A DNA stretch of 64,000 nucleotides from Blasia pusilla (GCA_050084515.1 CM114271.1:18786001-18850000), one strand, 5' to 3'; positions 12,983-64,000 are shown, counted from the first letter of the stretch. Made by a program: numbers and translations. The notes: generated by a model not told the origin, from the letters alone.

Positions 12983-13726
12983 TGTCGTGCGCATACACAT
13001 CGCTACACAACGTACATGGCTGGTCACATCCACACCACACAACACCGATCTTCCCCACACACGGTAGATCCGCACATGAATAGAAATCAACTCATACATA
13101 TACATGGAGATCACACAACAAAAATAAAGAGTAGTAAAAACGGCAGACCCAGCCTAAAACTCCACTCCTCAATCTCCATCGGCATATCGAGCCTCGTCCA
13201 CCCTGTGCTATCAAGGAATCCAGACGCTAGCACCTAGTTCTAACTCACACACACGAGCAAGAATGGTACTCCAACGGCCCAACATGAAAAAGATGGCTTG
13301 GGAAAGCCATCTTCCTCCCTTATATAGGGTTGGGAAGAGCCAAAAGGCTCTTCCCCTAAACATAGCTATCCTCATGGTAACCTACGCGCACAGGTTACCA
13401 GAGGCAAGTGACTTGCTCAACAAGTCACCCGGCTGTGAAAGACTCCAACAGGAAAGTTGTTAGAAAAGACGTTACTGACACAACGGACCTATCCTCAACC
13501 TCATCCAACACCGCGGGACAAAGTTACACTCAAGAAAGTCCTCTGGCTCCTATGCCCTATCCACGATAGATCTCCGCCTATCGGCTACTCAGATGTGACA
13601 GTTGTCCTGCACATACACATCGCTACACAACATACATCAACACCACACAAAACCGATCTTCCCCACACACGGGTAGATCCACACATGAATAGAAATCAAC
13701 TCATACATATACATGGAGATCACACA
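12983..13726 (-). repeat. 3' terminal A-B-A repeat block of copy 1
   Basis: A' 12983-13117 and A 13603-13726 are ~125-135-bp direct repeats around B (~13120-13600). On the element strand the A/B junction reads GGACA-AC-TGTCA and the terminus ends ...CGACA. The purine tract CCAGCTAGGGGGGCGGT precedes A. Confidence 0.85.
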
Positions 13727-13947
13727 ACCGCCCCCCTAGCTGGCAGTTGGATCCCCCTAACTCCAGATAGAAAATATCACGTCTCCTTGACATGACCTAC
13801 TATCCTATACACATCTCAGACACATCCATCCTCCCATGGGAACTACATCAAGAGGGGGGGTCAGACATCACATATGCCACCCTTGAGAACAACCATCACA
13901 TACCAACACGGTGGTTGCATCCCTCGCAAAGCCCCACAACATACACC

Positions 13948-14850
13948 TCAAGCAGGTATCACTGCCAAGCTCGGATCCACTATCCCATCCACGTTCGCAA
14001 GATGATATGGCGCACAATTACACACATGATCCTTCCAAACCATACAATCCCGTCCCTCCAACATGAGGACTCCGGTCGGTGATACCTCGAGCACATGTAG
14101 GATTATGCGCCCTATAGTGACATCTAGCTTCGTGGGTGCCACCTCTTGTAAATACACGTAATCTCCAGGATGCAACATCCTAATCCCTGGATGATAACCT
14201 CCTCCACGAATGGTCGCGTACCTCAATGTATCTCTATGTTGAGCAATAGCTAAGTTCTCAAAGGCCATAGGCATAACTCTATGAAAAATCTCCGCCCTGT
14301 GAGAACACGCTAGATCATTAAGATCTAACACCTCTGCCATGTAACATCGAATAGCTGCAAGTAAGTCTGGCTCTCTCCCAAAGAGCAAAAAGTATGGTGA
14401 AAATGACGCCAAGGATGTCTGCCAACTAAAGCAATAACCCATAGCCAACCATGGCAACTGTAGGTCCCACTCCCTCAACTGTCTCCGGTGCAAGCCATAC
14501 TTGCGCAATCCTCTCTTCACCGTCTGTACTGCTCTCTCCGCCAACCCATCCGCTTCAAGATGATCTCTGGATGTGGTGCGGTGATCTATCAACGCTTGAT
14601 CACACAAGGCTTGAAACTCTCCCCTGAACTCGGTACCCTGGTCAATCAACACCTCCGCCGTTGCACTAAAGTGACTAAGCACACGATCTAGAAATGCATA
14701 AGTTGTTCCCTCACTCGCCTTGTCCGGTAGTGCCACCCACTCTCTCCACTTGGAGAAATGCTCCATCATGACCAACACGTACATGTGATGATGCCCCATC
14801 ATTGGCAAAGGTCCCGAAAAGTCTAAACTCCACCGATAATCTAAACCCAT
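13948..14850 (-). pseudogene. Copy 1 integrase core (rve), followed by a frameshifted PHD finger at ~13810-13945
   Basis: WSLDFSGP..VLIDQGTEF..EADGLAERAVQTVKR; downstream CMLW...VLVCDGCSQGWHM*CLTPPL..VPMGGWMCLRC. Confidence 0.9.
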
Positions 14851-15364
14851 TTTCATGTCTTTTAGGATAGATCGGTGAAATCTAGTAGAGCGCCTTCATG
14901 AGTAGTGGAGGATAGGCTTAGTAGGTTGATGATGACCCGCTGAGGCCCCGGGAAACATGAGAGAGCAAGTTTCCCCTTTGTTTCCGCTCATTTGGAGCGA
15001 TATTGAGGAACTTACTATTTTAGGTAAGTACCATTTTGAGTATATGATCGACTTTCTATTTTTGTTAAGTGACTCTTGACCTCCTACATCACGTCAAGAG
15101 CCCAGGAGGTGACTTGGGAGAATAGGTTACCATGGAGAGAGCTTGGGAGAGGAGAGGGGTATACCTCAAGGAGAGAGAGCTTAAGAGCTCATTCTCTCTT
15201 TGTTGAATCTCTTGGCATGAGGCATCGCAGCTATGGTCCCTTGCATTGTGAGTGTAACCCAAGCCTCTCATTAGGAGAGTGGGTTTGGTTTGACATGAGA
15301 AAGAGTGCACACCTTTGAGAGCTATGGTGTGAGATGGTGTAGAGAGATATTGGATCTTACTTTA
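14851..15364 (+). repeat. 5' terminal repeat B of copy 2 (~514 bp)
   Basis: Closely similar direct copy of 23901-24410. Neither preceded nor followed by repeat A, and no recognisable tRNA PBS follows it. Confidence 0.9.
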
Positions 15365-18300
15365 CAAAGAGAGAATGAGAGAAAGAGAGAATGAGAGAAT
15401 GAGAGAGTGACAGAGCTTCATGGGGGAGCTGGCTGGTCACTCGCTGTTTTTGCAGGTTGGGGACCGTGTTTCCCATTCAGTGGCTCATGGAAGTGCTCAC
15501 CGGAGCAAGGGCTACTTTGATTGGTCTTTGCATTTGCGAGTTTTTCGTGTGGAAGAGTGGCGCGCGGAAGCGTTGCCCAATTTCTGATAGGGATTGATTA
15601 TGGGGGTGGATTGCCCCATGCTAGTGCTCTCGAGAGCACCATGACGCTTGCTAATGTGTATTTTTACACGTTTCACATTTTGGTTGGGAGTAATCAGCGC
15701 GGAAGTGCTGCCAAATTTTGTGTAGGAGAAAGAGACATTGGGCTTTGTGACAATCCCCGTCAATTTTTACTGAAATGTCCAATTCAAAATATTTTTTGAC
15801 ATTGTCATAGATGGTGAAGCTGTGCACGTGGTGCAACAAACAGTGTGCAATTTGGAGTTACAAGTAAAAAGTTCTGGTCAATCTTGCAAAATTGCCATTG
15901 CTAGGCAATTTTTAGGGTTAAATTGTTCAAACCCTAAACCAACCGCCACGCCGGCGGCGGCCATCGCCGTCATAGTCATAGTCACCGGTCAACGGTCAAC
16001 TTTCATAGTTGACGGTCAACCGACCACCGACCATCGTCGGCCGTTGCCGTTGCCCAGCGTTGCTCAGAGCCGCATTTGGCCGTTGTCCATCCTTTGGTTG
16101 TCATTGCTGACATTACGGAGTGGAGGGTCTTCCAGAACGTTCGTTGATTCTGTGACTTGCGTCACCACCACATACTTTGTTTCGGCCGCCAACGTCATCG
16201 AAGTTTTGTCATCAACCAGTGATGGCATACGACCTCCGGTTATGGTGTTTGAGTTTTGATTTCATGTTGGTATGTTGTGATTGGTAGGTGCTCCACGATG
16301 ATCGAGTACTGTGTCGTGACGCCTGTAGCCGCAACGCGCCGCCGATTGCCGCGCCGTGCCGCTCGTGGCCGCACGGCACCGTCTCGATCGCGGAGCCACA
16401 CCGTCATTGTGGAGCAAAGTGTGGTTTTATTGTTGATGGAGAAGGGTATGCCGCCGAGTGCCGCATCCCACCATCGAGGTTCGTGTCGTTCGTAGCCGTT
16501 CCGTGCCGCCTGCAACGCCGCACCGTTCCCTTGGAATTGCACTGCTTATCGAGGAGTTTTGAGCAGCGTCAGTACAAGAGGATTATGGCTTGCTGATTGG
16601 AGGAGTTGTCTCCACGACCGAGTTGGGGTTGAGATTTGCAGTTGCTGAGGAGCGACATCGACATGTGTTCAGGTTACCCATTCTAGTTCTTTACCCTGCA
16701 CGTGTGAGGGATTCTGGGATTCGGGTAGTTTATTTGGGGATATTGGGTTGTGTGGATGCTAAGAGCATCATTTATGTATGTGGTTTAGGGGACATAGACC
16801 TGTGTGAGATGTCCGGAGTTGAGGGTAGGTTGTCGATGAGATGATAGCCTGGTCGATTTGCCGCACCATGCCGTTTGTTGCCGCACGTTACACGTCTCGG
16901 GGAGGGAGAGTGTAGATCGAGTACCGCATGTTTGGGATGAGTAATTGAGGGATTACTTACGAGGTTGAGAGTGATTGTGTGAGAGGGGCACGAGGACCAT
17001 CACGGCGTCCTTTCAGGATTTTGAGAGACGAGGTAGTGGACCTGAGAGTAGCTCTGGAGGGTTTACCTGGAGTGGTGCGAGGTTTCTAGGGTCTCCACGT
17101 GAGAGACCACCTCGATCTCCTTCTATGTCATCTTCAAACGAGGGGGAACATGTAGAGGAGTGTGTTAGTGATCCACCGTACACATTGAGTAGTCCTACTA
17201 GTTGGGTGTACGAGATGGAGGACCGGGGTAGAGGATCGCGTAGGTTTTCACGAGTTTGGAAGGCGCCCGGATGAGAGTTTGCGTGAGGCTTACACTCGCT
17301 TGCGCTAGTTGATCAACGTCACTCAGGGGGTGACAGGGGCTTAGGCTATCCAATTATGGTACACGATGCTGGACCAAACCCTGCGGACACGGGTGCGGGA
17401 GGGGGTGCTTCTTATGAACACCTCCCCTACGTTGAGAGATGTTATTAGGACCGCCAAGAACATTGAGCGCAACATGGCGGAGGAGAGCGTAGCCACCATG
17501 GGTTATGGGCGAGAGCAGTCACGATTGTCTGCACTACCTGCGCAGCAACGTGGACTGCGAGATAGGTTGACAAGGGCACCACGAGCTTAGGGAGGATACT
17601 GGAAGGCCGTTCCACAGAGACTTGCACCTTCATATGCGGCTCAGCAGCAGCCGCCTACTATTTCTTGTTGGTCATGTGGTGGAGCCCATCATCAGCGCAA
17701 TTGCACTTGTCAGGGTCATGGACATGTGCCTCAACATGGAGGAGGAGATGGTGCTGCACCAGGAGGTTATCTCTGTGACTTTTGTCAGGGGTATGGTCAT
17801 ACACGTGCCAAGTATTTCAATTTACATCTTGAGTTACGTCAAGACCGAGGGCGAGAGAGGGCGCCAGAGCGAGTAGTCGGTCTGGGTGGGCCTAGAGATC
17901 GTGCACCAGGTGGTCCCGTTGGGGGACGAGGAGCTGGAGTTGCCTGACACGGTGGTGGAGCTGCCCGTGGAGGAGGTAGAGTACCACCACCTAGACGCGC
18001 CGAGGGAGACACCGGGCATGAGGCTAGGATGGATGCTCAGATACAACAACTAAACAAGCAGATTGCAGTTATGGCATTGAGGTTACCCGATGCCGGATCC
18101 GTGGCATCGACATCATATGGAGCAACCAGAGATCTGGAGGATCCTGGTTGGATGTGCAAGGTTGCCCAGATGGAGGCAGCCGCAGTTGTGACGCGTGGAG
18201 CAGCCGCAGAGTTTGATCCACAGCGAGGGGAAGCCATGAAACAGACTAGGCTTCCTCAGTCTTTCACGTTGTCCGGGGCGATGAGGACCCCATTGATGGG

Positions 18301-19499
18301 CCCTGATCAGAGTTCTTGGAGAGTTGGTGATGTTGTTGGTGTGCAGGCACTGAGGGCGATGGGAGAAGCGAGTACAATGACTCCTATTGTTGATGCTCAG
18401 GAGGGGCATGTGTCGAGCACGTTGTTGGGGGTGGCCACCGTTGTGTACCGCACTCCTTTATTTTTTGCTTCGGATGTTATGACGTTGGGGGTATGTCCGC
18501 CAAGGCTTTTCGGCTGGCCGCTATGCTATGTGAGCGTGGAGTTCCTCCATCACATTCAGAGGTGATTACAGAGGAGGTGATGGACCTGCCCTTGGAGCGG
18601 ATGCTGAGGCCGTCCATGTCAGATTCATGGCAGGCTCTGATTGCTAGGATGGTGGAGATGCCCGCTAGACCCGCGATAGAGCGTGCCATGGATTCTCTTG
18701 GTGTTGTATTGCTAGATAACCAAGGAGAGGTCTTTTTCAGTTGGTGAGTTCCAGAGGTAGAGCTTTTAGTCCGCAGCATCTTGTTGGATTCTGGAGCGCA
18801 ACCCCTCATGTTGGGGAAAGCGTCATTCAGAGGATTGGGCTTGACGAGAGCCGATGTGGAGCGTTGTCCATTCCGGATACAGACATCCTTGGGTGGAGTG
18901 AGTACCACACAGTATATCACCCGACAGGAGGTCGTGGTGAGGATTTTCCCGGGACATCCTACAGATGAGTCCGTGGTGCGAGTCAAGGCGATAGTGACTG
19001 ATGCAGAGTCCTACGACGTCTTGGTTGGTGGAGCAGTGTTATATCCGATGGGGTTTTCCCTGGATTATTGGGAGGAGTCAGCATCCTACAGACGAGGATG
19101 GAAGTCAGGTGATGGGCGCCTTAGCTCATTACCCGTTCGATTCATAGGTGCAGTGATCGAGCAACGGCCAAGAGAGATGGCGACCTTAGCAGTATTTAGC
19201 AGTGCCATCACTTGGCCTAGTGATTTGATTGAGGGACATGTCCATGTAGAGGATACTCCCATTCCTGACATTTCTATTGAGAGGAGTGTTATGGTAGCCG
19301 CATCATTCCGTGGAGGAGAGATGCCGTTGTGGGGCTCGACTAAGGAGCTTGGACAATTGGCACATGAGCACGTGCAGACCGCGTGGAGCGAGGCGTTTGC
19401 ACCAGAGGGTGACGGGTCTGAGGAACCTAGGGAAGCAAGGAGTGCTACGATGACACCCTTGGATACCACACCCATTGTGTGGTGTATCCCGGAGGAGGG

Positions 19500-20460
19500 T
19501 ATTCGAGTGTTAGATCTCTTTGGAGGGATTAGCATCGAATTAGCTTCTATTTAGCAAGTAGGAGTGCAAGTGCAGTAGTATCTGTATGTGGAGAGTGATG
19601 ATGTTGCGAGGCGCATCTCACCACGACATATGGCGTAGTTATGCCTACGTTTTCTTGACTTATTGTGTGCGTCCGCGGTACACGGATACCAGAGTTCCCT
19701 ACCGAGGAATATTTCCTTGTTAGGGACGCAGGACTTAAAGCGGGTAGGGACCATTGATTTGGTCATTTCCGCTTGGCCATGTTAGGGCCAATCGAGTGCT
19801 GGACGAGGCATCGGGTTGGCTGACACTCGGTCGAGGTTGTTTTGGGAGATGTTGAGGGTCTTACGCCAGTTACAAGAGCACCAGTCTCGTTCTCCAGCCT
19901 ACATTCTGGAGAATGTGCCGATCTTAGGAGACTCCAGGTCACAGGTGGTGACAAGTGGTCATCATGTGCGTGCCTGGATCGGCCTAGCAGCGTTCTTAGA
20001 TGCGGCGAGTGTAGGTTCTAGAGCCCATCGCCCGCGACTATGGTGGACCAACTTGGTGCCCCATGCGGTGTTACGAAGGGCGTATGCGAGAGTGGAGCGC
20101 CCCTCCCATTTGTTAGTGGATTCCATTCTGGATCCAAGTCGTCGCTCACACGCAGTGAGGCACAATGATCGACCACCGTTGACTGTGGTCAATAGGGTAG
20201 GCAAGCGGCGGGTAGCCTTTCCCACGTTTGTGAGTTTTCCCGCTTCCTATGCATACAAGGAGGCCGGTCCTGGCTTGGTTTGGGATGACCAAGTTTAGAG
20301 GTTGGTGGAGCCCAACGCTGACGAGAGAGAGCGGGCCATGGGATTTCCCACAGGAGTGACAGCAGTACCGTCAGTATCAGAGGCATCACGACACCATGTC
20401 TTAGGTCAGGCGATGGACCTCAACTTCTTGACATGGATCTTCAGCTTGGGAGTGGCTGAG
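19500..20460 (+). pseudogene. C5 cytosine DNA methyltransferase domain (DNMT3-like) of copy 2, in frame with the protease
   Basis: Motif I IRVLDLFGGIS, II YVESD, IV AWPC*G, RSRLFWE, VI YILENV, VIII HRPRLWWTNL, IX ERERAMGFP, X HHVLGQAM. Several in-frame stops. ORF 18781-19554 contains both the protease and motif I. Confidence 0.9.
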
Positions 20461-22456
20461 CAGCGTCGGATGAGATCGCGACAGATCACAGTGGTTGCAT
20501 TGGTGAGCCCCATGCCTACCAAGACGGTGGAGGCAGTGGCTGGGGACGAGACCCAAGGAGATCGACACACCAAGGGAGATCGGGAGAGACACCCTTGGAC
20601 TTCTTGGGATGTTTTGCAGGTACGCCAGGAGATGATAGCCACAGCATCGAGCGTGGTTCTGGGGACTGCATGTGGAGGAGATCAGAGTTTGCACTTAGCT
20701 GCAAGAGAGCGGTTGAGTGTCATTTTTTGAGATGGGGTTGCACCATAGCAACCACCGATATCCGCGTCGGAGAGTCCTACCGTAGTCACAATGGAGACTT
20801 GGGAGCTAGATATGGGCCCTAAGTTGACAAGAGGAGAGCGGCGCCAAATACATCAGTTCCTCAGGAGTTAGAGGAGCTGCTTTGCGTTTAGCATGGAGGA
20901 TTTGGGTACGGCGAAGGGACCAGGGATCCGCATTGAGTTGTCGAGTGATACGCCGATCTTCCGACGATCCTACACGTCCAGCGATATGGAGAGGGCTCTA
21001 ATTCAGAGTAGGAGCCAAGACTTGGTCAGAGCAGGACTAGTGGAGATGTCGCATGGGGAGTATGCATCTGCCACTGTCATGCCCACCAAGAAGGATGTGC
21101 ATGGCAACTAGACGAATAGGCGGATGTGTGGGGATTATCGACCGATCAATCGGCAGACGAAGTCCGATATTGATGACATCGTAGTCATCAGCGCTACGGT
21201 TGAGGAGCGTGAGCGACATCTAGAAGAGGTATTTCGACGATTGCAATTACATGGGCTGAAGCTATATCCAGGCAAGTGCAAGTTCTTCTATGACCAGATT
21301 GAGTACTTGGGTCATGCGATATACCTAGGGGGCCTTGATGTTCAGTAGACGAAGATAGAGGCTATCTCATGCATTCCACGCCCTACACATGTGAGCCCAT
21401 GGGATTGGCGAACTTCTATCGGCGGTATGTCAAGGGATTCAGTTTGATTGCGAATCCGCTGACCTTGCTGACCAAGATGGATCACGAGTGGCACTAGGGG
21501 GATGAGCACGAGCAAGCATTTCAATTGCTCAAGGATAGGTTGACGTCTGCGCCCATCTTGAGGAGACCGATCAGGGGGCATCCTTTCCAGTTGCACACAG
21601 ATTGGAGCATGTTGGGGCTTGGAGTGGTGCTCACCCAACATGATGATGAGGGTAGAGAGTTTGTGGTGGCTTACACTAGCCGGTTGAACAACGCTACAGA
21701 GGCAAAGTACAGCTCGTATGAGGATGATTGCTTGGCTGCAGTGTGGGTTATCGCGCATTTCAGGTGTTACTTATTCGGCAACCCCTTTACCATCATCACT
21801 GATCATCAACCACTGAAGTGGTTGATGGAGTCCGACAAGCTTACAGGGAAGCTTGCAAGATGGGCTCTGTTGTTGCAAGAGTATGATTTTCAGGAGGTAC
21901 ATAGACCTGGGATGCTCAACCAGAATGCATATGGGTTGAGTCATAACCTATGCCTGAGTCAACGAGATGCGACTGGAGCTCGATGGCATGGAGAGAGTGA
22001 TGAGGAGTCAGTGCCAGGATGGCACGGATCAGCCTATTTAGGCATGTTGGCTATGGAGAGCCAGAGTGTGGAGACTTCAATGGCGAGGTCAGTGAAGAGT
22101 CCTTGGATCCCCAGGCTAGTGAGGAGACCATAAGTGGCCGAGATATTCATGATGATGGAGTAGTCTTGGAGTACCTTTGTACTAGTAGCGTTGCGAGCAC
22201 CGTGGGTGCTAGAGAGCGGGATCGGATCCTACAGCGGGCCAGACGGTTCCGTTGGGAGGGGACACATGTTTTGAGGGTTTGGGAGGATAGTAGAGTTCGC
22301 ATAGTGCCGCATCCTTTGCAGAGAGCACGACTAGTGTAGCATGCCCATAAGGAGTTGGGTCAATTTGGGATGAAGCGGACGTACAGCTTGCTCTAGATTC
22401 AGTATTGGTGGCGAGGCATGCAGACTGACGTTCAGTAGTTTGTTGCCAGGTGCATA

Positions 22457-23584
22457 GTGTGTGATCAGATCCGAGCATCGTTCAATGCTCCGACTCCACA
22501 GTTGCATCCATTACCGATCATGGACTTAGGATATAGATGGAGTTTGGATTTTGCACGACCTTTGCCTTTGACGGAGCGTCACAGTCGTTATGTGTTGGTG
22601 ATGGTCGAGCACTTCTCGAAGTGGATCGAGTTGGTTGCATTGCCTGACAAAGCGAGTGAGGGAGTAGCTTATGCCTTCCTTGACAGAGTGTTGAGTCATT
22701 ATGGTGCACCGGCTGAGGTTTTGATAGACCAGGGTACCGAGTTTCGCGGTGAGTTCCAGGCCTTGTGTGATCAGGCGCTCATCGACCACTGCACGACCTC
22801 GCGAGATCATCCCGAGGCGGATGGATTAGCAGACAGAGTTGTGCAGACGGTGAAGAGGGGTTTATGCAAGTATGGCTTGCAGAGAGGTCACCTAAGAGAT
22901 TGGGACCTCCAGTTGGCCTGGTTGGCGATGGGATACAGATTCAACGAGCATGCATCCTTAGTGTCTTTTTCACCGTACTTGCTACTTTATGGCCGAGAGC
23001 CAGATTTACCTACGGCCATTCGTCGAGATGCTGGTGAGGTCCTGGACCTTGATGACCTAGATGTATGGATACGAGCATGTTCTCAAAGGGCTGAGTTATT
23101 TCAGAGAGTGATGCCCATGGCATTCGAGAACTTGGTGATTGCGCAGCATCGGGATACATTGAGGTATGCGACTATTCGGGGTGGTGATTATCGACCAACT
23201 ATCCGGAGGTTTCACCAGCGAGATTATGTCTACTTGCAGCAGACAGCACCGATGACGTTGGATGTGACTGCATGGCGCACTATCCCGAGAGTGCGTGACG
23301 CTTTGCCATCCGGTGTTTTCTTGTTGGAGGGACCCGATGGTATGGTATGGAAGGACCATGTGCGTAATTGTGCACCATGTCACCTTCCTAACATTGATGG
23401 TATAGTAGATCCAAGCTCAGTAGTAGTTCTTGCAGGCTTGCGTTGTATGTTGTGTGGTTCTACTCGTGGTGCGGCCAGGATGCTAGTCTGTGATGGATGT
23501 TCGAGAGTTTGGCATATGGCATGTTTGACGCCACCTCCCACTAGGGTTCCTTGGGGACGATGGATGTGTCCCAGATGTACATAG
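22457..23584 (+). CDS. Copy 2 integrase core with C-terminal PHD finger (open part of a disrupted pol)
   Basis: WSLDFARP, LIDQGTEF, EADGLADR, then the C4HC3 motif CMLC...MLVCDGCSRVWHMACLTPP...VPWGRWMCPRC at the C-terminus. Confidence 0.92.
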   Translation: MCDQIRASFNAPTPQLHPLPIMDLGYRWSLDFARPLPLTERHSRYVLVMVEHFSKWIELVALPDKASEGVAYAFLDRVLSHYGAPAEVLIDQGTEFRGEFQALCDQALIDHCTTSRDHPEADGLADRVVQTVKRGLCKYGLQRGHLRDWDLQLAWLAMGYRFNEHASLVSFSPYLLLYGREPDLPTAIRRDAGEVLDLDDLDVWIRACSQRAELFQRVMPMAFENLVIAQHRDTLRYATIRGGDYRPTIRRFHQRDYVYLQQTAPMTLDVTAWRTIPRVRDALPSGVFLLEGPDGMVWKDHVRNCAPCHLPNIDGIVDPSSVVVLAGLRCMLCGSTRGAARMLVCDGCSRVWHMACLTPPPTRVPWGRWMCPRCT

Positions 23585-23772
23585 AGGAGATACTAGGTAG
23601 GTTTCAATTCTGACTCTTTCTGTGACATGGATGATAGGAAGGCGACTAACGATGGGGCCACATGAGCACCCGACCTTTCTGCTCTTAGCGTCCTAGAGAT
23701 GTATATCATGGTAGGTAGGGATAGATGGCTATCTGAAGTTAGAGGGACCTAACCACCAGCTAGGGGGGTGAT

Positions 23773-24539
23773 TGGAGATATTTTGGTACTTCTTGTCTCG
23801 TTGTTTGGATGCCATGAGTTAGCATGGGATCGTGCGTGTTTGTGTTTGTGTACGTTGACATCGATGTATGTTGTGTAGCGATGTGTATGTGCACGATAGT
23901 AGTCACGTCTTTTAGGATAGATCAGTGAAATCCAGTAGAGCGCCTTCGTGAGTAGTGGAGGACAGGCTTAGTAGGTCGAGGATGACATGCTGAGGCCCCG
24001 AGAAACCTGAGAGAGCAAGTTTCCCCTTCGTTTCCGCTCATTTGGAGCCATATTGAGGAACTTACTATTTTGGGTAAGTACCATTTTGAGTATATGATCA
24101 ACTTTATTTTTTTGGTAAGTGACTCTTGAGGACATCAGGAAAAGAGCCAAGGAGGTGACTTGGGAGAATAGGGAACCATGGAGAGAGCTTTGGAGAGGAG
24201 AGGGGTATACCTCAAGGAGAGAGAGCTTGAGAGCTCATTCTATCTTTGTTCAACCTCTTGGTATGAGGCGGCGGAGCTATGGTCCCTTGCCTTGTGAGTA
24301 TAACCCAAGCCTCTCATTAGGAGAGTGGGTTTGGTTTGACATGAGAGAGAGTGCACACCTTTGAGAGCTATGGTGTGAGATGGTGTAGAGAGAGATTGGA
24401 TCTTACTTTATTGGAGATATTTTGGTACTTCTTGTCTTGTTGTTTGGATGCCATGAGTTAGCATGGGATCGTGCGTGTTTGTGTGTGTGTGTTCGGTGAC
24501 AACGATGTATGTTGTGTGGCGATGTGTATGCGCATGACA
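23773..24539 (+). repeat. 3' terminal A-B-A repeat block of copy 2
   Basis: PPT-like CCAGCTAGGGGGGTGAT (~23756-23772); A1 23773-23898; spacer GT; B2 23901-24410; A2 24412-24539 ending TGACA. Confidence 0.9.
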
Positions 24540-26795
24540 CCATAATCAACAAAGGATGTAACTTCGGAGTGGGAGCATTGAAGGATGCTCATACTTTGTC
24601 ACATACCATATATCTGGCCACAAACCGTTGTATCCCACTATGCATGCCGCGCCATCGATACTGAATTTGGAGTAAGTTGTAAGTAAGCTTTACTCCAAAA
24701 TGCCCCAACTCCTCATGGCATGTCACACTACACGTGCTTGATGGGAACGATGAGGTACCACTCGTATCCTACCATCTCCCCATACCCACAAAATGTGAGT
24801 CCTCTCCCACCTGAACCTTCTGGCTCTCTATAGGATCCGGTCCCGCTCCCTAGCACTCACTGTGCTCGCTATGACGCCAGTGCTCAAGAACTCCACAACC
24901 TCTATGTCGTCATGGATATCATGACCACTTGTCGCCTCCTCACTGACCTCTGGATCCAAAGACTCATCATCCAACCCCACCATTGGAGTCATCACCTGCG
25001 GTTGACCTACCATAGTCAACCAACAAAGATAGGCAGATGCATGCCAATCGGGCACCATCTCCTCATCACTCTCTCCGTGCCATCGAGCTCCTATGTCGTC
25101 TCTCTGACTCGGACATGGGTTACGACTCAACCCATCCGCATCATGATTCAGCCGACATGGCCTGTGAACCACCTCAAACTCATACTCATGTAGTAATAGA
25201 TCCCACCAGGCAAGCTTTTCCGTAAGCTTGTCGGACTCCATCAGCCACCTCAATGGCTGATGATAAGTGTGAAAGGGTTGCCAAATAAATAGCATGTGAA
25301 ATGTGCCACAGACCACACAGCAGCCAAGCACTCTCTCTTGTAGGAGCTGTACTTTGCCTCTGCAATGTTGTTTGATCGGCTCGCTTAAGCCACAACAAAC
25401 TCCTTCTCCTCGTCATCCCTCTGAGTAAGCACTGGTCCTAGACCTAATATGCTCCAATCTGTATGTAACCAGAATGGGGGACTCCTAATCGGTCTCTGTA
25501 AAATGGGTGAGGATGTCAACCTATCCTTGAGCTCTTGAAAAGCCCGCTCCTAATCATCTCCCCACAACCAAACCTGATCAAATCTTGTCAACAAGGTCAA
25601 AGACTTCGCGATCGCACTAAAACCCTTGACATACCATCGATAGAAGTTCTCCAGTCCAAGAAATGCTCTGACTTGACTCACATGTGTAGGACGTGGAATT
25701 TGCGCAATTGCCTCCATCTTTGACTGCTGAACACCTAACCCACTGTGGCATATGGTGTGTCCCAAGTACTCAATCTGCTCTTGAAAGAATCTGCACTTGC
25801 CTAGATGTAACTTCAATCTATATAACTGCAATCGCCAAAACACCTCCCCTAGGTGTTTTTCATGATCCTCAACCGTGAAACTGAAGATGAGAATATCATC
25901 TATGTAACATCGTACAAAATCCAAGCTAGCCAAAATCCTATCCATCACTCTGTGAAACTGTGCAGGTGCGTTCTTCAACCCAAATGGTAAGAACCGGCAC
26001 TTATACAAGCAATCTCTCCTGAACGGATCTATCCCCCAGAATGTTGTCTTCTCCCTATCTTCCAACCTGATAGGAAGCTGTTGATAGCCAACACGGAGAT
26101 CTAAAGTACTCAAGATCTTTGCATGCCCCACCACATCAAAGATCTCCTCAGGAGTAGGCATGGCGTACCGATCTGACCTCGTATGTCGGTTGATAGGACG
26201 GTAATCTCCACACATCCGCCTATCCGTCCAATTGCCATACATATCCTTCTTCGCCGGCATGATTGTGGCAAATGCATACTCCCCATGTGATAACTCCACA
26301 AGTCATGACTCCTGCTTTGAATCAAGGCTCCCTCCATATGAGAATACCTTTAGGGTCGACAAAAGATTGGCATATCACTAGCTAACTCAATCCGTATCGC
26401 GAGACCCTTCAACATACCCAAGTCTCTCATACTGAAGGCAAAAAAACTAACATGCCTTCTCAGAAACCTATGAACTCATCATCGCTCTCCACCTATCAAC
26501 TTGAGACCTATCACAGGCTCCCAAGTCTCCATTGTGACCTCACTCGGAGAGGATGCAACCTCCGACTTTGGTTGCTATGTAGCAATCCTAGCCACCTCCG
26601 CAATAGCCACTCCACTCTGACCTCCTACACCATGCTCCACATCCAAAAATGAACATGTGCTGCTCTCGCCTCCTTTGGACTCTCTGCTCAAACAACGTCC
26701 TAGTAAGTCCATGGGTGCCTATCTCTCCTCATCCTACCCCCAGCCAATGCCTGTACAGACCCTGTAGGCAACGCTCCAACTCGTGGACGTGACGG

Positions 26796-29060: not shown

Positions 29061-32000
29061 ACCCTCCTCTCAACACTGCCACACAACGGGTGTGGTATCC
29101 ACTGGGATCAACGTCTCCATTCCAGGAGCCTGATCGCTAGGTGACTCTCGGTGCTCTGGGATAAAGGCATGACTCCACGCCTGCCTCACGAGGTCTTCGG
29201 CACTCCTCTGTAGCTCTCGAGTCGTATCCCAAAATGGTGAAGAGGTCTCGCCAACATGGGAAGAGACACCCGCCATGGCCTGTCTCTCCGTGGGACTATC
29301 CGCTATTGGGACATCCTCCGCATGTGTGTTCCCCTCCTACAACTCTCCTTGCTAGCTAACACTACCTGTGAAAGCTGCCAACGTGGTCACAAACTCGTCT
29401 TGTGCTCGACCACCTCGTCCCGCAAACTGCACAAGTAATTGACTCATCCGCCCGTCACTTGACCGCCACCCTGGCCAATAAGCAACGGTCTCCTCCCATA
29501 AGTCAAAGATGAATCCTAGGGCATATAACATTGTACTCCCCACCAACACAACGTACGACTCAACTGGTGTCGTAATCGCACATGTGCGTACCACAACACT
29601 ATCTGTCGCATGCTCTAGCTGGACTCTGATAATTATCTCTTGTCGAGTCATATACTGCGTGGGTGACACGCCCCAAATCAAGGTTTGTATCTGGAAGGGA
29701 CAAGGCTCAATGTCGGCCTTCCGTAACCCCAACGCTAAACACGCTGCCTTCCCTAACATTAAGGGTTGCGCTCTTGAATAAAGTAGGATGCGTTGCGGGT
29801 GGTATACTGTCCCCGTTGGACTAACCAAGTAAAATACTCTAGCTCGGTTATCCAATAACACTACGCCAGGTGGCATCACTGCTCGCTCTATGGTTGAGCG
29901 ATCTGTCATATTAACCAACTTCGCCACCGCCGCATACCATGACTCTATGGGAGACGTCCCGATCACCTACTCCGAGGGCAAGTCCACCACCTCCTCAAAT
30001 GCCTTTGAACAAGAGGCAGTCACCTCTCCACGCTCATACAACGTGGCGGCCAGCCGGAACACCTCAACTGGTCCAACTCCCAACGTCGCCAACTTTATGG
30101 CGGAAAATAGCAGAGTCTGGCTCACTCTAACGGCTACATCCAACACTATGGTCGACATTGACTCCACTCGAGCCAGCATAGGAGTTGTCACTCCAACTCC
30201 TCATGACATTGACGCATCTATCTGACCTGTAGGCACCGCTGGTCGTCGAGGCACCATCGATGGTGTGTGTAGTGCCTCCGACAATGTGAATGATTGTGGA
30301 ACCCTGGCTTGCCGCCCATTAGACTCCTTTGGTGGGTCAATCTCAACTTCACCTCTGAATGGCTCAAGTGCCTTTCGCAGCATCCCAAGTCACCACTACA
30401 GCAGCCTCAACCTGAGCGACACTACACATATACCCCATACTAGCAAGATCCACACCCGGGTAAGAGGTAGAAGCTGGAGCTCGGTAAGAGATGGAAGTTG
30501 GAGCCACACTAGATGCTCGCGGCTCCGTGCCTTCCCAAAGCTGCATCATCGTCATGGCAACAATCCTCTGCTCCAACTGATCGATGTGTGAAAGAAGTGT
30601 CGGCTCCAGTGCTCCTGCTCCAACTCCTCTGGTGGTGGTCCTCTTCTGTCACGTCCATGAACAACTCCCCAACCTCCTCTAGGACGACCGTCCCTAGGCC
30701 CTCAGCCTACCTCTCGACGTGCCTCTCAACAAAGGTCAAAACATCTATCCCTAGTGTGACCATATCTGTGGCAATAGTCATACTGGTACTGTGTCATGAC
30801 CATACGGATTATGTCGTAGAGTATAGTGTGCTTGTAGAGGCCATACCTTATGAGGGCCATAGTGTCAAGGTAGAGATGCCGTTTCATACGTAGGATTGGG
30901 GGTTACTCAGTTGAGGGTGACTTTTCCAATAGGGCCCGCTCTTAGGTTGGAGGATATAGTGTGGAGTGCACTCAAAGAATAATTAGTCCTTTGAGTTGAG
31001 CTTGTTGCGTTGGGAGTTAGCCTTGGTAGTGAGTAGAGCTCTTGGCTATGGTGGTTCCGTAAGCTTTGACCTAGATTCTCCCATCGTGGAGTGGGTTTGG
31101 CTTGATTTGATGTGATTCTATATGTGTTTTATGACACTAGGTCTTTCACGGATTTCACTCAAAGAACTAGAGTAGATCGATGGTAGCTTCGATTATGGAT
31201 TAGTAGGTTATGATTGATTGTGTACTCAGCCGTGGATGTTCATGAATTTTGGCCTATGTTGGAGGTGGGAATCTGGTGTGTGGTTGGTTGGGAAAGAAGC
31301 GCCTTGCTGAGAGCTTTCCAACGCGCTTTAGATCGCCGGATTTTGTCAATGGAGTTGGAAGTTATCAAGGATTGAAGATTCTGGTTTGTGTTCGACGGTT
31401 TTTTGATGTGGAGAGCTTGGAGTGCGGAAGCTCTGTTGAAGTTCATCTAGATTGGGTGAGAGGTTCCTGTTGCTACTTGTATTGTGATCTCATGTGAAGC
31501 TATGTGCTTGAGTGTGTGGAGCGTTTCCGATTTCTGCGTGCATGAATCTGGGCGGAAGCGCTGTTGGATTTACGATTCTGGAGGTGTATGGACAGCAAGT
31601 TTGTTTGATTTTTAGCTCGGAGTACAGAGCTCTGTTGTAGCAGATTTTTGTGGAGAGATAGCTATGGTGGTTAACTTCGAGGCTTCGAGGCAACTCGTGG
31701 TAGCTTGGGGCGAGTGGGCGTGAGAGGCGGAGCAAGGAGCAAGCAAGCAAGCTTACTTGCTTGGGCGTGAGGCAATTTTTGCAGGATTTGTGATTTGAGT
31801 GTTGCATAACTGGTCACCCATCTTTGAGCTATTCTGCCTGGAAGACGCTTAACTGCCGAGTTCTTAACTATGCCAGTGTACACACTGGTGTAGCTCATTT
31901 GGTGCTGATTGGAGATGTGTTTGGCGCTTTATGCATCTTAGTTTTTTGGTTGATGGACCTCTAACGCATAGTACGGTGTAGCCTCTCCATGCAGGTAATA

Positions 32001-42156: not shown

Positions 42157-44136
42157 CTATGGTTGTCTGTTTGCCTGCAAAGCTGCACTCAATTGCTTTA
42201 ACCCTTCTCCAATGTTGTTCAATGCACTGATGTAACCACTCCCAAGCTCCATTGTGCCCCTAAACTTCTCCTTCTCGAACTTCAGTTTGATCCTTTCCAT
42301 CTCCATATCCTCCTTATGCCTCTTGTCTTTCCTCTCCTCTGATTCCATCATTGCGTCAACTACCTTCTTGTTATTCCTTTCAAGAATTGGAGCCATTCTG
42401 TCTGAAGATTTTGGTAACAACTTCCGCTTCCTTAATGTGCTAGGCCCATTCATGTTCTCAGCATCATCTCCTTCTGACTCAGAAAACTCCCCGTTACTTC
42501 CAGCAGTATTGTCTGGACTTCCACCTGCTCCTGCATCAGATCCATATGAACAAGCTACAAATAACTTCAGTTATTACCATCCGTGTTGATTATGGACAAG
42601 ACTGCACACAAAATATGTTTACAATCAGCTGCCACCAACCTTGGATTGCAGACATAGCAAAAAGTTAGCTCTGAGTACACTTCAAGCCTAGGCATCGTCT
42701 AGAGTAAAACCTTTGCATACACTGACTTCCTCGATGAAAGAGCCACAACATGGCCATCCACTTGAACAAGCCGCATTGGATCAGACATGAACCTTCAAGA
42801 TGTTCCGTGTAAAAGAGCTCGAACTGGTATCAGTAATTACAAACAGAACAAAGGGCCAGTGAACAATTAAAAACCGATATTTTTGCTCTTACAGTGCCAA
42901 TGGTGGGCTACTTCATAACAAACTGATCAGTACTCCTATATATGCCAGTCTTCAGAAAAAGGGAATTGGATAGAGGGCGGACAGGGTTCACATACTAGGG
43001 CAGTAATCACGTTCTCAAATCAGGTCAAAGAAACTGATTATCAGCTTGAATAATTTATCAAGTTTCCGGAACATGATACACTGATCATCACTCCAATGCT
43101 TAGTAAGAGAGATAAACACGTTCCAAACACTCTATTACCCTCTTGATCGTTTCTTTCTGAGGAAGATGGAACATTGAACTGAACATAGTTTGATTCAATG
43201 TGAAGAAAGTAGAGAGCATTAATTTGCAATAACGATGCCGTTGCAAAAGGATATTGAGGGCAATGAAAAAAACATCAACTGAAGTAACAGAAAATTTCTT
43301 ATGTTCAAGGTACTCAGGTTTAAGAAATTTACTGGAGATTATCAAGGACGAGAAGTACTTAATCTTCTACTTGGAGATGAGGACTATTCTGCCAATTTGC
43401 TTTGACTCTTAAGCCAGAATCTCACAACATCCAATGACCCAACCATACATATCTGACAACCTCAAATGAGACAAGACGTGCATATGCATGCATTCCAGAT
43501 ATCGTAAACTATCACCAGGCCCTGCAACCAGGACCCTGGAAACTAGACAGCTACTTGTCTCAAACTCTCTGCGAGTATGCACTTACCAATGCGCAGCACA
43601 GGAGCTGGGGTTGATGTATCCACAGCAAGTTCACCAGGATCTGCAGCTTTGCTCTTGTTGTACCATTCAGTGAGAGCTTGAAAAACCTCTTTGTAAAAAT
43701 TTCGAGGAAGTCTATGTTTCTTCCTCTCATCCCCCAGCATCTCCCAGTATGACCTTTGCCCGCTGGGTATGTTCTTTTCGTAGTCGTTTACCTTTTTGAA
43801 CTCTGAGGCTAGGAGTTCCCACTTGTCCTGACACTGCTGAGCACTTTTCTGCACCCCTTGAGCCCAACAGTAATCTTCAATCCACTGCCATCGTTCTACC
43901 GCCGTCTTCTTCTTCTCTTTCAAACCCCCTTTATTTTGCCTGTCGAAGTCCTCGCGCCTGGCAGTCTGTAAAATTACCATCTCTGCAGGCGTCCAGTTGC
44001 TTTTCTTATAATTACGCCCCTTTCTTGAACCTTCAGGCTCCCCGAACAGGACCTCGTCATCCATATCCTTGCTCTGATCATCGTTCACCTGCACAACGGC
44101 CCGGGGATCCGCCATGGCGACCTCCTCGCTCGTCAT
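42157..44136 (-). CDS. Trihelix / Myb-SANT-like transcription factor (ASR3/SH4-like); exons 44136-43587 and 42530-42157
   Basis: NWTPAEMVIL...ERWQWIEDYCWAQGVQKSAQQCQDKWELLASEFKKVNDYE...SYWEM...ERKKHRLPRNFYKEVF. A phase-1 GT-AG intron joins in frame to an acidic/basic and coiled-coil C-terminal exon. No disruptions seen. Confidence 0.85.
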
Positions 44137-45211
44137 CCCAATCGGAAGCCGGAGAAAATGCCTTTCGGCCAGATTGCCCGGCTGTCTGGAGTCAAAATTT
44201 TGCTTCCCCTAAGCCTCAACCCTAAACCATCATCTCCAGCTTTTCAGTACTTAAGTCTATATGATGCTCGTGGGTGCGATACACAGAAAATAAAGTTTCT
44301 CCCGTCAACACTCACTCTGTCCTCCTACCATTAGGGTCTGCCTCTCGCCCTGCTTCCCGCCCGCTCGAGCTCCTCAACAGCCATTCCTTTCCGCCAGAAG
44401 TGCATTTGAGCATCGGAGGAACAGCAGGAAAAACTCTGAAACTATCCTGCACCTGGAATTGGCCAACGGCCCCGAGCCTCCCTTCATGAATGCCTCAAAC
44501 AATCGTACCGGCAATGATCCCCCTCCCTGCTTCCGAACACGATTTCCTCCTCTTTCACACTCGGTCTCCACCACATTTCGGCCCGTCTAAGCTTCCTTTT
44601 CCAACCCTCCACCTTTGTTTCCTCTCCTCTACTTCCTTCCCCTTCCCACGTTACCCTCACGCCAAAGCACTCTCGACACCTCCTCGTTCTTCTCCGCCCG
44701 AGAGGTCCAACCTCTCAGACCGACCACAACCTGCACAAGCTGCAAAAATCACCTGTCACTCTCCATCAGTGCCCAAGGTCACACACCTGCCAACGATAAA
44801 GGATACGAAAGAGCACCACGGACAAGAGCCAAAGAAAAAGAGCCCCCGACTTCTCCAACAGAACAACGAACCCACCTTCGATCCGCCCTCCCTAGTTGCA
44901 GCGCCGCTAGTACGTGAGAGCCACCGCACCTCACCACCCTCTTTCTCCTCTTCCTCTTCCTCACGGAAACCCTCCACAACCTCCGAAGAAAGACCGAAGA
45001 AACCCAAGCACGCACGACCGGAAACCAAAGGCACCCGCACCCCAAAGACAAACCCGAACAGGAGCAAAAGGGACGGGGGAGGGGGGAAATGAAACAAAAT
45101 CAGAAAAGTGGACCCAAGAACGATAGGTGGGAGCGACAGGAATAATCCAAACGCCCGCCAATCCCTACACCCAAAAGAACCCGTAAAAATTATAGCGCTA
45201 ACCCCACACAC

Positions 45212-61120: not shown

Positions 61121-64000
61121 AGGGCATGATATCAGGCAATGTCTCAGGATACCCTGGTGTTAATCTGACCATAGCACCTTTTGATGGGACTAACTATAGA
61201 CATTGGTCATTCCAAATGAAACTCCTTCTTCAGCAGAAGAGACTATGGGAGTTTGTGTCTTCTGAGGTGAAAGACCCAGATGAAATCAAGGATTTTGAAA
61301 ACAAGAATGGTGATGCTTACTCTACCATTTGCCTTCATACAGAGTGGTCTATTGCTGAAACTCTTAGGGATGAGAGTCTAGCTTGGAGGGTTTGGCAAAT
61401 CTTGCAAAATCAGTATGAGAAAGTTGTTGTATGTGAAGGGTTACAACTCTGGCGAGATTTCAGAACCATTGAGTTTGAGGAGGGTCAGAGCATGCAAGCG
61501 CATGTGGTACAGGTTCGAGCCATGTAGCTGAAGGTGAAAGCTGCACTACAGCTTGACTTTGAAGGTAAGAATTCCATCTTGCACTTCCTGGGGACATTAC
61601 CTCCTAGGTTTAATACCATCATCAAAATCCTTCACAACAAGGATGCAGAGCTGTCTTGGGAATACGTCACAACACAAATCATTCGAGAGGATGAAGAATG
61701 GAAGAAAGATCAAGAGGCAGATTCAGCTCTGTTAAGTTCAAACCTGCAAGGTGGACTCCTAATGAGAGGAGAGACACAAAAACAGATACACGAATCTGTT
61801 ACACTTGCAGGGAAAAGGGACATCTATCTCCTCAGTGTCCCAAGAATAAGAACTACAAGATGAAGAAATTCATCAAGAGATCTCACAAGGAGGGTGCAAT
61901 GATTGCTGAGCATGTTGCTGATGCAAATTACTCAGAATGGGGGTTAGTTACCAGCAAGGAGGCCACTCTCAAAAGTAAAGGTTGGTTTCTCGATTCTGGA
62001 GCTACTGCTCACATTTGCTATGACAAAGATCTTTTTTGTGAGTTTCATCCTGTGTCAAGTGCACAGTATGATGTTAAACAATGTCCTTTACGTACCAGAG
62101 TTCACAAAGAACTTGGTATCTGTGCATCAGCTTACAGAGAAAGGCATTCTTGTATTATTCCTTGACAAAAGATGCATCCTTCAAAAGGGAGAAGAAGTTC
62201 TCTGCCAGGGTGTGGCAGAAGACAAATTGTTTCGATTGGTGGAAACAACAAAAGTTGAAGCGATGGTGGCTGCTGATGCCATGGTAGCTGAAAACTCCAA
62301 CAACATGAAACTGTGGCATCTTCGACTCGGCCATTTATCAGAGATCAACCTTCGTTCTCTACAGAAGATGGTGGAAGGGTTAAAACTACATGCTGATGGT
62401 AGATTGGACTTTTGTAGAGCATGTGCTGAGGGTAAATCTCACAAATTGTCATTTCCCAAGAAATCTTTGAGTAGATCAACAGGCCTTCTAGATCTCATCC
62501 ACTCAGATGTTTGGGGTTACATGACACAGAAGTCTCTAGGAGGAGCTGCTTGGTATGTGTCCTTTGTGGATGATTATAGCAGAAAAAGCTTTGTGTATCT
62601 GATGAAACACAAAGGTGAGGTTCTTGATAAGTTCAAGAACTTTGTGGCAATGGTGGAGCTACAGACAGGAAGAAAAGTGAAGAAAATTCGCTCAGATGGA
62701 GGCAAGGAGTACAGGAACAAAGAGTTCTCCTCCTTTTTGCAACAAAAGGATTTTGGCTGATGTCACAGCCAGAGACAGTCCCTCTCAGAATGGAGTAGCA
62801 GAGAGACTAAACAGAACTCTGTCAGAGAAGGCGTTGAGCATGCTCCAGCATGCAAATCTCAGGAAAAGCTTTTGGGAGCTGCAATCAAGACTGCAAACTT
62901 TCTGAGGAATGTAAGTCCTACTAGTGCTTTGAATGGGATGACTCCAGAAGAATGCTGGAGTGGTAAGAAGCCAGATATCTCCCACCTGAGAGTCTTTGGT
63001 TGTCCAGCTTACGTACATATCCCAAAGGAGCAAAGATCAAAATTCAGTAAGAAGGCTGAAAAGCTCATCTTTGTAGGATATGAGACTGGCTTGAAGGGAT
63101 ATGTTCTCTACAATCCAAAGACTGGACAGTGTGTCACAAGTAGAGATGTGCAGTTTGATGAAACCTGGGAAGGAGATCAGAAGAAAATTTCTGAAGTAGA
63201 GGGTGAATCATCATCACAACCGCAAATTACTTTTCATGCAGGAACTCCAACAACTGATCTAGAAAGAGATGCAGATCAAACCTCGAGACCATCTCGTGGA
63301 GAATTCCGTTCAGAAAATCTGAAGGTATATGTCAGGAGAAAGCAGAAAGTTGTCCAAACTGAGGAGAATCATCAGGAATCCAACTTTCAGCCTGCTGAAG
63401 TACCAGGTACCTCTGAAGATGCACAAACTGAAGAAGTGGCAGAGACATTGCCAAGGAGATCCGGAAGAACGAGAACACCTATTGACAGGTTGGGAGTTCA
63501 TCATGAGAAACAGGCTCACTCCTCAGTGGATGAAGAAGCTTGTCTTACTATGGATGGAGAGGATGAACCTCAAACACTTGCACAGGCTATGAGTAGACCT
63601 GATTGGAGCAAGTGGGAGATTGCCATTGATCAAGAGAAAAAGTCTCTTGCAAAGAATGGCACATGGGAGTGGACTGATCTTCCCAAAGAGAGGAGATCCA
63701 TTGGTTGCAAATGGGTTTTCAAGATCAAGAGAGGAGCTAACAATGAAGTGGTGAAGTACAAAGCTCGTCTTGTAGCAAAGGGTTTCAATCAGCAAGCTGA
63801 AGTTGATTATACAGAGACCTTTGCTCCTGTAGTACGGTATGGTTCCATAAGGTTGCTTTTAGCTCTAGCTGCTGAAGAAGATTGGGAGGTGGAGCAATTA
63901 GATGTGGAGACTGCTTTTCTGAATGGAGACCTGAAGGAAACCATCTACATGGATGTTCCAGATGGGTATGGTGGACATAGGGGCAATGCATGTTTGTTGA

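Follow-up and report, generated by a model that had tools for sequence, protein, structure and literature searches.

Permuted terminal repeats in a Ty3/Gypsy retroelement family found in Blasia pusilla, with a candidate route of integration

Here we describe a retroelement with permuted repeats in a 64,000-nt stretch of Blasia pusilla (GCA_050084515.1 CM114271.1:18786001-18850000, one strand), which is called the window throughout. Comparison of the window with itself gives the element, copy 2 (14851-24539), the order B1 ... PPT-A1-B2-A2, that is, one repeat at the 5' end and three repeat parts behind a polypurine tract (PPT) at the 3' end. This B...A-B-A layout is confirmed as a trait of the family. 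To judge by its sequence, copy 2 belongs, in a decayed state, to a Ty3/Gypsy clade of the green lineage and is of the same kind as KnitGypsy-Dnmt3 of Klebsormidium nitens. The explanation that we favour, at a probability of roughly 0.55, is that, in this family, the repeat produced by reverse transcription does not share its register with the ends that integration uses: the ends of the complementary DNA (cDNA) would be joined and the integrase would then cut at an internal palindrome.

The layout itself is not new. In de Mendoza et al. (2018, PMC5890265), the legend of Fig. 4c describes KnitGypsy-Dnmt3 with a Gypsy-type polyprotein whose Pol contains a DNA methyltransferase (DNMT), and with a DIRS-like arrangement of its repeats. 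An earlier note on this DNA had known of no such description for Gypsy elements, which has to be corrected in view of that legend; copy 2 adds a liverwort-type member to a kind that a single sentence had noted before. The available text of PMC5890265 gives no mechanism, target duplications, termini, primer-binding site (PBS) or PPT for KnitGypsy-Dnmt3. In the literature searched, with subscription journals and supplements outside its reach, neither another Gypsy element of this layout nor a further paper with the name KnitGypsy was found besides PMC5890265.

Layout of the repeats in the window and in related loci

The features of copy 2 are listed with the evidence for each in brackets.

14847-14850, no strand: left 4-bp target duplication CCAT (colinear copy 1 flanks)
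14851-15363, plus: B1, the sole 5' repeat, starting TTTCATG and read as U3 (3' part)-R-U5 (similarity to B2)
15159-15165, plus: TATA-like box GTATACC in B1, position 309 of B (29 nt ahead of the PBS-complementary stretch)
15188-15203, plus: predicted 5' end of the transcript and proposed self-primer, CTCATTCTCTCTTTGT (complementarity to 15364-15379; a predicted start, which the reads do not show)
15364-15379, plus: putative self-priming PBS ACAAAGAGAGAATGAG, directly after U5 (complementarity, fold)
18640-20466, plus: decayed protease-DNMT part of the polyprotein (tblastn with open reading frame 1, ORF1, of the related locus L018)
20791-22133, plus: reverse transcriptase and RNase H, frameshifted (tblastn with L018 ORF2; Pfam)
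22439-23584, plus: DDE integrase core and C-terminal PHD finger (Pfam)
23760-23768, plus: PPT CTAGGGGGG, 2 nt ahead of A1 (same motif in copy 1 and related loci)
23771-23898, plus: A1, read as the 5' part of U3, ending CACGATA, a decayed CACGACA (similarity to A2)
23892-23907, plus: internal A-B junction CACGATA-GT-AGTCACG, a decayed CATGACA-NN-TGTCATG (identical to the element's right end fused to its left end)
23901-24409, plus: B2 (similarity to B1)
24409-24410, plus: B2-A2 joint, last U5 base and first A base (the base preceding the PBS in B1; 2 nt past the PPT G-run)
24410-24539, plus: A2, the right terminus, ending CATGACA (similarity to A1)
24540-24543, no strand: right 4-bp target duplication CCAT (colinear copy 1 flanks)

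The two B repeats (14853-15364 and 23903-24410) are 91.6% identical over a 512-nt alignment and the two A repeats (23771-23896 and 24410-24537) 92.2% identical over 128 nt, and the repeat search of the window found no A adjoining B1 on either side. Copy 2 is nested within an older copy 1 on the minus strand: 22520-23598 of copy 2 aligns to the copy 1 part at 14850-13795, and 21196-22523 aligns to 25876-24540. Because these copy 1 flanks are colinear and overlap by 4 nt (22520-22523), the CCAT found at 14847-14850 and again at 24540-24543 is the duplicated target. This duplication bounds copy 2, and the inserted unit is therefore exactly B...A-B-A, the layout that the earlier note had reported. 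The 5' end, TTTCATG, is one change off TGTCATG, and the 3' end is CATGACA.

When metagenome contigs were scanned with an integrase alignment, 553 stretches were confirmed, and the best 80 of them were kept as loci. All 80 were annotated with a library of A and B segments and then sorted by their 3' ends, as read past the integrase gene, several loci being one site assembled more than once:

A-B-A (long form): 29 loci, 23 distinct sites
Single A bordering on unrelated flank (short form): 23 loci, 21 distinct sites
A-B that leads into other sequence or stops with the contig: 3 loci (L010, L025, L076)
Deletion form: 1 locus (L033)
Contig stopping inside or just past A: 2 loci
Without annotation: 22 loci, most of them contigs that stop soon past the integrase gene; the longer or more diverged ones are L011, L012, L018, L038, L067 and L078

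Self-comparison of the loci with both ends and both repeat pairs gave B...A-B-A in six out of six (L001, L028, L043, L054, L056, L068). Of the 16 annotated 5' ends, 14 are distinct, a count that includes window copies 2 and 3 as well as two neighbouring elements (in L049 and L078); every one of the 14 starts with B directly after unrelated flank, and A was found at none of them. Full-length copies with two complete equal long terminal repeats (LTRs), which the earlier note had named as the finding that would reduce copy 2 to a deletion product, were looked for and not seen: the 80 loci hold no AB...AB, BA...BA or B-A-B...A copy. The long form recurs in families whose integrases are just 48-75% identical, and for that reason we regard it as the propagating form.

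Copies 1 and 3 of the window agree with this layout in the parts that they retain:

12983-13739, minus: 3' end of copy 1, with PPT, A1', spacer AC, B' and A2' (repeat comparison)
13739-13731, minus: PPT of copy 1 (same motif as ahead of A1 in copy 2)
13728-13591, minus: A1' of copy 1 (85% alike to A2')
13590-13120, minus: B' of copy 1, containing CTATATAAGG (repeat comparison)
13119-12983, minus: A2' of copy 1 (85% alike to A1')
30792-31156, plus: 5' repeat of copy 3, a B that starts TGTCATGACC, then ACTCAAAGAACTA (repeat annotation)

The PPT-A-B-A end claimed for copy 1 as an independent instance is present from 13739 to 12983; its 5' B was sought across the window and not found, copy 1 being interrupted by copies 2 and 3. 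The suggestion that copy 3 may start with an ordinary LTR was wrong and is rejected: the repeat, which ends at 31156 and not at 31136 as first noted, is B, the same kind of primer site comes next, and the repeat annotation shows no A ahead of it. Copy 3 has no comparable 3' end because it breaks off near 39000 inside RNase H.

Reverse-transcription signals, termini and encoded proteins

In all 7 full elements and in the rows of the junction alignment, A starts 0-4 nt past the G-run of the PPT, which reads CTAGGGGGG in the window family and is a run of 6-9 G in the L054 family. The stretch directly after B1 is the perfect reverse complement of a stretch in mid-B, over 15-17 nt in 4 distinct elements. 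The lengths of complementarity, each compared with 300 control windows per element, were as follows:

Window copy 2 (15364-15379 against 15188-15203): 16 nt, 0/300 controls (largest 9-10)
L001 (= L022): 17 nt, 0/300 controls
L054: 15 nt, 0/300 controls
L056: 15 nt, 0/300 controls
L068: 10 nt, 4/300 controls
L029 (= L030): 9 nt, 4-5/300 controls

The primer sequences vary between families while the pairing is kept, which therefore amounts to covariation. At 24-33 nt upstream of the complementary stretch, the window, L054, L056, L068 and L029/L030 have a TATA-like box, and TATAAA stands at the matching place in related families. Predicted folds of the R-U5-PBS RNA hold the duplex in both the minimum free energy (MFE) and the centroid structures, with z of -3.7, -4.4 and -2.9 in three folds; the first of these values belongs to the window, where 15364-15379 pairs with 15188-15203 in both structures. 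Inspection by eye only showed no PBS of the transfer RNA (tRNA) type after B1. Taken together, the site after B1 is strongly indicated to be a self-priming PBS of the Tf1 type, with the 5' end of the RNA predicted from the spacing to the TATA-like box.

Since plus-strand priming would occur immediately ahead of A and minus-strand priming immediately behind B, the LTR of reverse transcription should be A-NN-B (NN being two bases), with the promoter and R-U5 in B. The cDNA to be expected from such an LTR is therefore AB-PBS-internal-PPT-AB, and the genomic copy, B-PBS-internal-PPT-A-NN-B-A, reads as a permutation of it.

The termini of the family form a 7-nt inverted repeat, TGTCATG...CATGACA. 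Perfect 4-bp target duplications flank five of the seven long elements with both ends (CCAT in the window, AAGG in L001, CATA in L028, CATA in L043 and ATGT in L068); in L056 three of the four bases match, and L054 has none. Among the four short forms with both ends, two are flanked by perfect 4-bp duplications (TACA in L004, ACTA in L030), a duplication is likely in L036 (TGTG, next to a damaged 5' end), and L063 has none.

The same end sequences meet inside the element. In all 26 readable rows out of 27, the A1-B2 junction equals the right end, exactly two bases and the left end (CA-NN-TG), the row of L045 being off register in the alignment. The two bases are GC, AC, AT, GT or AA, and the 2-nt spacer is also found in copy 1 (AC), L018 (GT) and L010 (GC); where these bases are GC or AT, the junction forms a perfect 16-nt palindrome. 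The B2-A2 joint consists of the U5 end, 0-5 nt of PBS sequence and the U3 start. It carries PBS bases in the L054-type families (A, AA, AAT or AATTC) and lacks 5 bases of U3 in L055/L056. On this composition B2-A2 reads as a U5-to-U3 joint; because it is made of the U5 end and the U3 start, the integrated element would contain an LTR-LTR joint and have its own ends at the palindrome inside U3.

Copy 2 is decayed and without long frames, its whole-frame translation containing 103 stops, and its domains were taken from a Pfam scan of 10 individual ORFs: RT_RNaseH at 21498-22133 (E 4e-35), rve (E 2e-13) and PHD (E 2e-10) at 22439-23584, and a weak DNA_methylase match at 19786-20298 (E 8e-4, under the curated cut-off). 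L018, the locus with the longest open frames among those fetched, was used as the most complete copy. Its frames encode Asp_protease_2 and DNA_methylase (ORF1, E 2e-13), then RVT_1, RT_RNaseH, Integrase_H2C2, rve and PHD, and residues 664-1260 of ORF1 match 18640-20466 of copy 2 at 40% identity (tblastn, E 1e-120). One in-frame stop (L018:5083-5085) separates the protease-DNMT frame (976-5082) from the frame for reverse transcriptase (RT), RNase H (RH), integrase (IN) and PHD (5086-8226); it could be a programmed readthrough or one mutation. No tyrosine recombinase (Phage_integrase) was found in the two long ORFs of L018 or in the 10 scanned ORFs of copy 2. The 7 other L018 ORFs of at least 120 amino acids gave no Pfam match at E<=0.1 except one weak zinc-knuckle, and for this reason L018 is read as having no tyrosine recombinase.

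The integrase-PHD frame of copy 2 has 237 relatives at E<=1e-3. Those named come from liverworts (Calypogeia fissa at 76% identity, Marchantia, Riccia), Sphagnum and K. nitens, whose proteins, matched at 46-52% identity, carry rve and PHD. The longer relatives bear RVT_1, RNase H, integrase and PHD, some of them DNA_methylase as well, and the green algae Pleodorina, Volvox and Chlamydomonas eustigma are among those named. Domain order was examined on four longer relatives, with DNA_methylase in P0131, P0154 and P0197. The DNMT part of L018 as a query returned named Marchantia proteins and none from Klebsormidium, a result that does not strengthen the tie to KnitGypsy-Dnmt3. In the window, in L018 and in the four relatives just mentioned the integrase ends in a PHD finger, with no chromodomain, and the polyprotein order of the clade is protease (PR)-DNMT-RT-RH-IN(DDE)-PHD. 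As in Ty3/Gypsy elements, we thus find TG...CA termini with a short target duplication, a PPT ahead of the 3' repeat, a PBS behind the 5' one, and the Pol order protease-RT-RNase H-integrase with a DDE (rve) integrase; the two equal LTRs of an integrated Ty3/Gypsy copy are absent. The DDE integrase, the TG..CA-type ends and the target duplication that the earlier note had ascribed to the element are all upheld.

Proposed route of integration and its alternatives

In the route that we favour, reverse transcription would give AB-internal-AB, with a canonical U3-R-U5 repeat in the form of A-NN-B. The integrase would ignore the ends of this cDNA; its sites, TGTCATG and CATGACA, would lie in the palindrome of about 16 nt, with the 2-nt spacer, at the A-B boundary inside U3. 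The two cDNA ends would be joined ahead of integration, most simply as a 2-LTR circle, and the integrase would cut, in the manner of a restriction enzyme, the palindrome in what had been the 5' LTR, leaving processed CA ends that would insert with a 4-bp stagger. As a precedent, the integrases of prototype foamy virus (PFV) and human immunodeficiency virus type 1 (HIV-1) are reported to cleave the palindromic LTR-LTR junction at an internal position (PMC1180852, PMC1905944). Only the long form could propagate by this route, because its transcript carries R at both ends and the whole of U3. The earlier note had proposed a non-canonical route, for example a circle carrying AB-AB that is opened at one A-B junction. 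A non-canonical route as such is supported and can be drawn more sharply. AB as the LTR of reverse transcription and a copy opened at the A-B junction gain support from the PPT next to A, the self-priming PBS next to B1, the U5-U3 joint and the 2-nt-spaced palindrome; the closed circle does not, and the B-A-B...A form that a symmetric circle also predicts was not seen.

One aberrant locus bears on the proposed cut. The 3' end of L010 (3242-3885) runs PPT-A-GC-B to the U5 end and continues with the reverse complement of B positions 2-181, a segment made of the promoter part and the 17-nt primer stretch (156/176 in alignment) that ends in CATGACA and adjoins the flank. It looks like plus-strand strong-stop DNA (A-B-PBS) that folded back by its PBS end onto its own R and, once extended, was cleaved at the inverted site. 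Read in this way, L010 supports the existence of A-B-PBS as a unit and an integrase that cuts its site wherever it is located.

Several points weigh against the joined-end route. Everything was read from integrated copies, and no circle, linear cDNA or extrachromosomal junction was seen. A circle with two equal palindromes predicts B-A-B...A, which is found in none of the 7 long and 4 short elements or at the 14 distinct 5' ends. The B-A joint is fairly uniform within a family, and its inheritance by another route is conceivable. The transcript start is a prediction, the only listed start in the RNA reads being 14912 (run X23) and not 15188, and RNA depth over B does not separate B1 from B2. 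Complementarity is not above control in L028, L004, L036, L039/L040, L043, L063 and window copy 3; these are decayed copies, but they are misses. The fold windows were begun at the predicted primer, which favours the duplex. Finally, the related loci stem for the most part from a small set of related metagenome records, and the number of host species behind them may be low.

Tentatively, and with less confidence than for the route as such, we extend this view to the whole clade: green-lineage Gypsy elements of this kind might integrate productively only from joined U5-U3 cDNA (a 2-LTR circle or an equivalent), with a DDE integrase that acts in a restriction-like manner on a palindrome inside U3.

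The strongest of the other explanations, which we judge unlikely though well short of negligible, keeps the LTR register and the internal integrase sites but does without a closed circle. The plus strand would reach the U5 end and switch end-to-end onto the U3 end, giving a linear AB-internal-AB-A... that is cut at the first left palindrome and at the added right one. Such a switch accounts for the asymmetry of the data, with long and short forms and no B-A-B...A, and for the variable 0-5 nt of PBS at the joint, which look as if part of the primer had been copied; L010 indicates that products of aberrant priming by strong-stop DNA do become integrated. However, no such switch is displayed in the data, and the integrated copies fit the circle route equally well. 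Retroviral 2-LTR junctions may carry bases from an incompletely removed primer, and the extra PBS bases are equally explicable by end joining of cDNA ends of that sort.

A further possibility, to which we give still less credence, is that the short form B...A is the primary product and A-B-A rare or secondary, or the reverse, that all insertions are long and the short forms are A1/A2 deletions. The short forms (for example L004:2794-11433, L030:59-6641 and L036:2362-12246, with B...internal...A and a single A) are nearly as common as the long ones in the counts given above, and half of the four with both ends have perfect 4-bp duplications. Nevertheless, the short form cannot found a lineage, its transcript having neither a 3' R nor the U3 part with the promoter, and it should be inactive from the moment of insertion, whereas the long form is the one that recurs across the diverged families. 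A short form may result either from cuts at both palindromes of the linear cDNA or from a later A1/A2 deletion, two origins that target duplications do not separate.

The resemblance to the split direct repeats of tyrosine-recombinase elements, pointed out in the earlier note, is real. PAT, Ngaro and TOC elements have the order A1-internal-B1-A2-B2 (PMC4157794, PMC5890265), which is the same topology with the letters swapped, and they share with copy 2 one 5' repeat, a three-part 3' end and an internal junction equal to the joined termini. A cycle like that of DIRS, PAT and Ngaro, in which a tyrosine recombinase provided in trans would insert a circle and the internal A-B junction would be just the template that restores the ends, is nonetheless very improbable. 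PAT, Ngaro and TOC encode a tyrosine recombinase, whereas this family has a DDE integrase of its own, TG...CA ends and 4-bp target duplications, its PPT and self-priming PBS lie exactly at the borders of the repeats, and the ORFs scanned in the most complete copy, L018, gave no tyrosine recombinase. A copy-specific accident or an assembly error, in which copy 2 lost its 5' A and gained a tandem 3' A, could appeal to the single window copy with both ends, but it is refuted by the family-wide A-B-A ends (23 distinct sites in independent assemblies and several diverged families), the B-only start of 14/14 5' ends and a target duplication that directly abuts B1.

Textbook LTR retrotransposons are recognised, dated and annotated by their two equal LTRs. 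The clade described here breaks this rule, LTR finders will miss or miscut such elements, and dating by LTR pairs has to use B1/B2 or A1/A2. What was a one-line remark in 2018 becomes, with the anatomy found (self-priming PBS, PPT, retained U5-U3 joint, 2-nt-spaced palindrome, 4-bp duplications and abundant short form), a model of integration from joined ends that can be tested. The family also shows that a layout of split direct repeats does not depend on a tyrosine recombinase, a point of relevance to the evolution of DIRS-like layouts. If the joined-end route is true, this would be the first retroelement lineage in which a tandem-LTR form, a dead end in retroviruses, is an obligatory precursor, and a DDE-integrase counterpart of the DIRS/Ngaro strategy that was reached independently.

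Known systems, transcription and neighbouring features

Compared with the legend text on KnitGypsy-Dnmt3, the family has in common the DNMT inside a Gypsy polyprotein (in L018, and as a decayed remnant in the window) and DIRS-like repeats, one at the 5' end and three parts at the 3' end; the hosts differ, that of the window being liverwort-like and that of KnitGypsy a charophyte alga. Tf1/Sushi elements are known to self-prime, and the plant Tcn1 clade is predicted to do so (Neumann et al. 2019, PMC6317226). As in those elements, no tRNA-type PBS was seen by eye here and the site past U5 is complementary to the predicted start of the own transcript, but they have two equal LTRs and a chromodomain in place of permuted repeats and a PHD finger. 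With the PFV and HIV-1 integrases (Delelis et al. 2005, 2007) the family would share a cut at an internal palindrome composed of both end sequences and the resulting processed ends. The retroviral palindrome coincides with the U5-U3 joint, and its use is a side path at most, whereas here the palindrome lies inside U3, the joint survives and the route seems obligatory. Gypsy-7a_cRei of Chlamydomonas, for which Craig et al. (2022, PMC9940879) draw LTR 'subparts' and a left LTR without the last 8 bp of the right one, likewise belongs to the Gypsy elements of the green lineage and has a PHD finger along with an integrase; its two LTRs are described as near-equal, in contrast to the permuted repeats of the window family.

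Three raw stranded RNA sequencing runs with the same species label (X22, X23, X24) were mapped at 85% likeness. Over copy 2, on the plus strand, first mates fall mostly on the minus strand (bin 22900-23303, depths 154.5, 171.9 and 131.7 against 11.6, 3.1 and 6.8 on the plus strand); over copy 1, on the minus strand, they fall mostly on the plus strand (bin 14416-14819, depths 18.2, 20.9 and 17.8 against 0.2, 0.6 and 2.5). This bias fits sense transcription of the family. The identity classes of the reads in X22 are 6/260/3163/3036, and because nearly all reads are 85-95% alike they stem from related copies and not from copy 2. Reads that join the A end (24534) to the B start (14853) number 18, 52 and 15 in X22, X23 and X24; the A-B junction is therefore transcribed, as expected for U3. 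In these reads B1 and B2, like A1 and A2, are indistinguishable, and they give no usable transcript start or poly(A) site. As the family is transcribed in the sampled host, the model is practical to test.

Within the RT region, RNA reads skip 795 nt (20909-21705) with ends GG..CA, in 14, 23 and 12 reads of the three runs; this is probably a deletion variant among transcribed relatives and not a canonical intron. In a DNA run, the summed k-mer depth is about 6-10 times as high over B (14820-15223, 24112-24515) as over the internal region, an unreliable measure which we did not use; the excess may reflect a large number of solo B(A) units, or B being shared with other elements. The contigs of that run, of about 100-130 nt, together with the summed depths, do not resolve the arrangements.

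Outside the three copies, two frames on the minus strand at 9479-12112 carry ESF1 RRM and NUC153 domains and are apparently exons of a host ESF1-like gene whose end is some 0.9 kb away from the 3' terminus of copy 1. A Ty1/Copia element (gag_pre-integrs, rve, SH3_retrovirus and RVT_2) occupies 61948-63999 on the plus strand and runs past the end of the window. Remains of mobile elements, a DDE_Tnp_4 (PIF/Harbinger-type) transposase fragment and a Myb/SANT-like DNA-binding frame, lie on the minus strand at 2968-3627 and 43546-44208.

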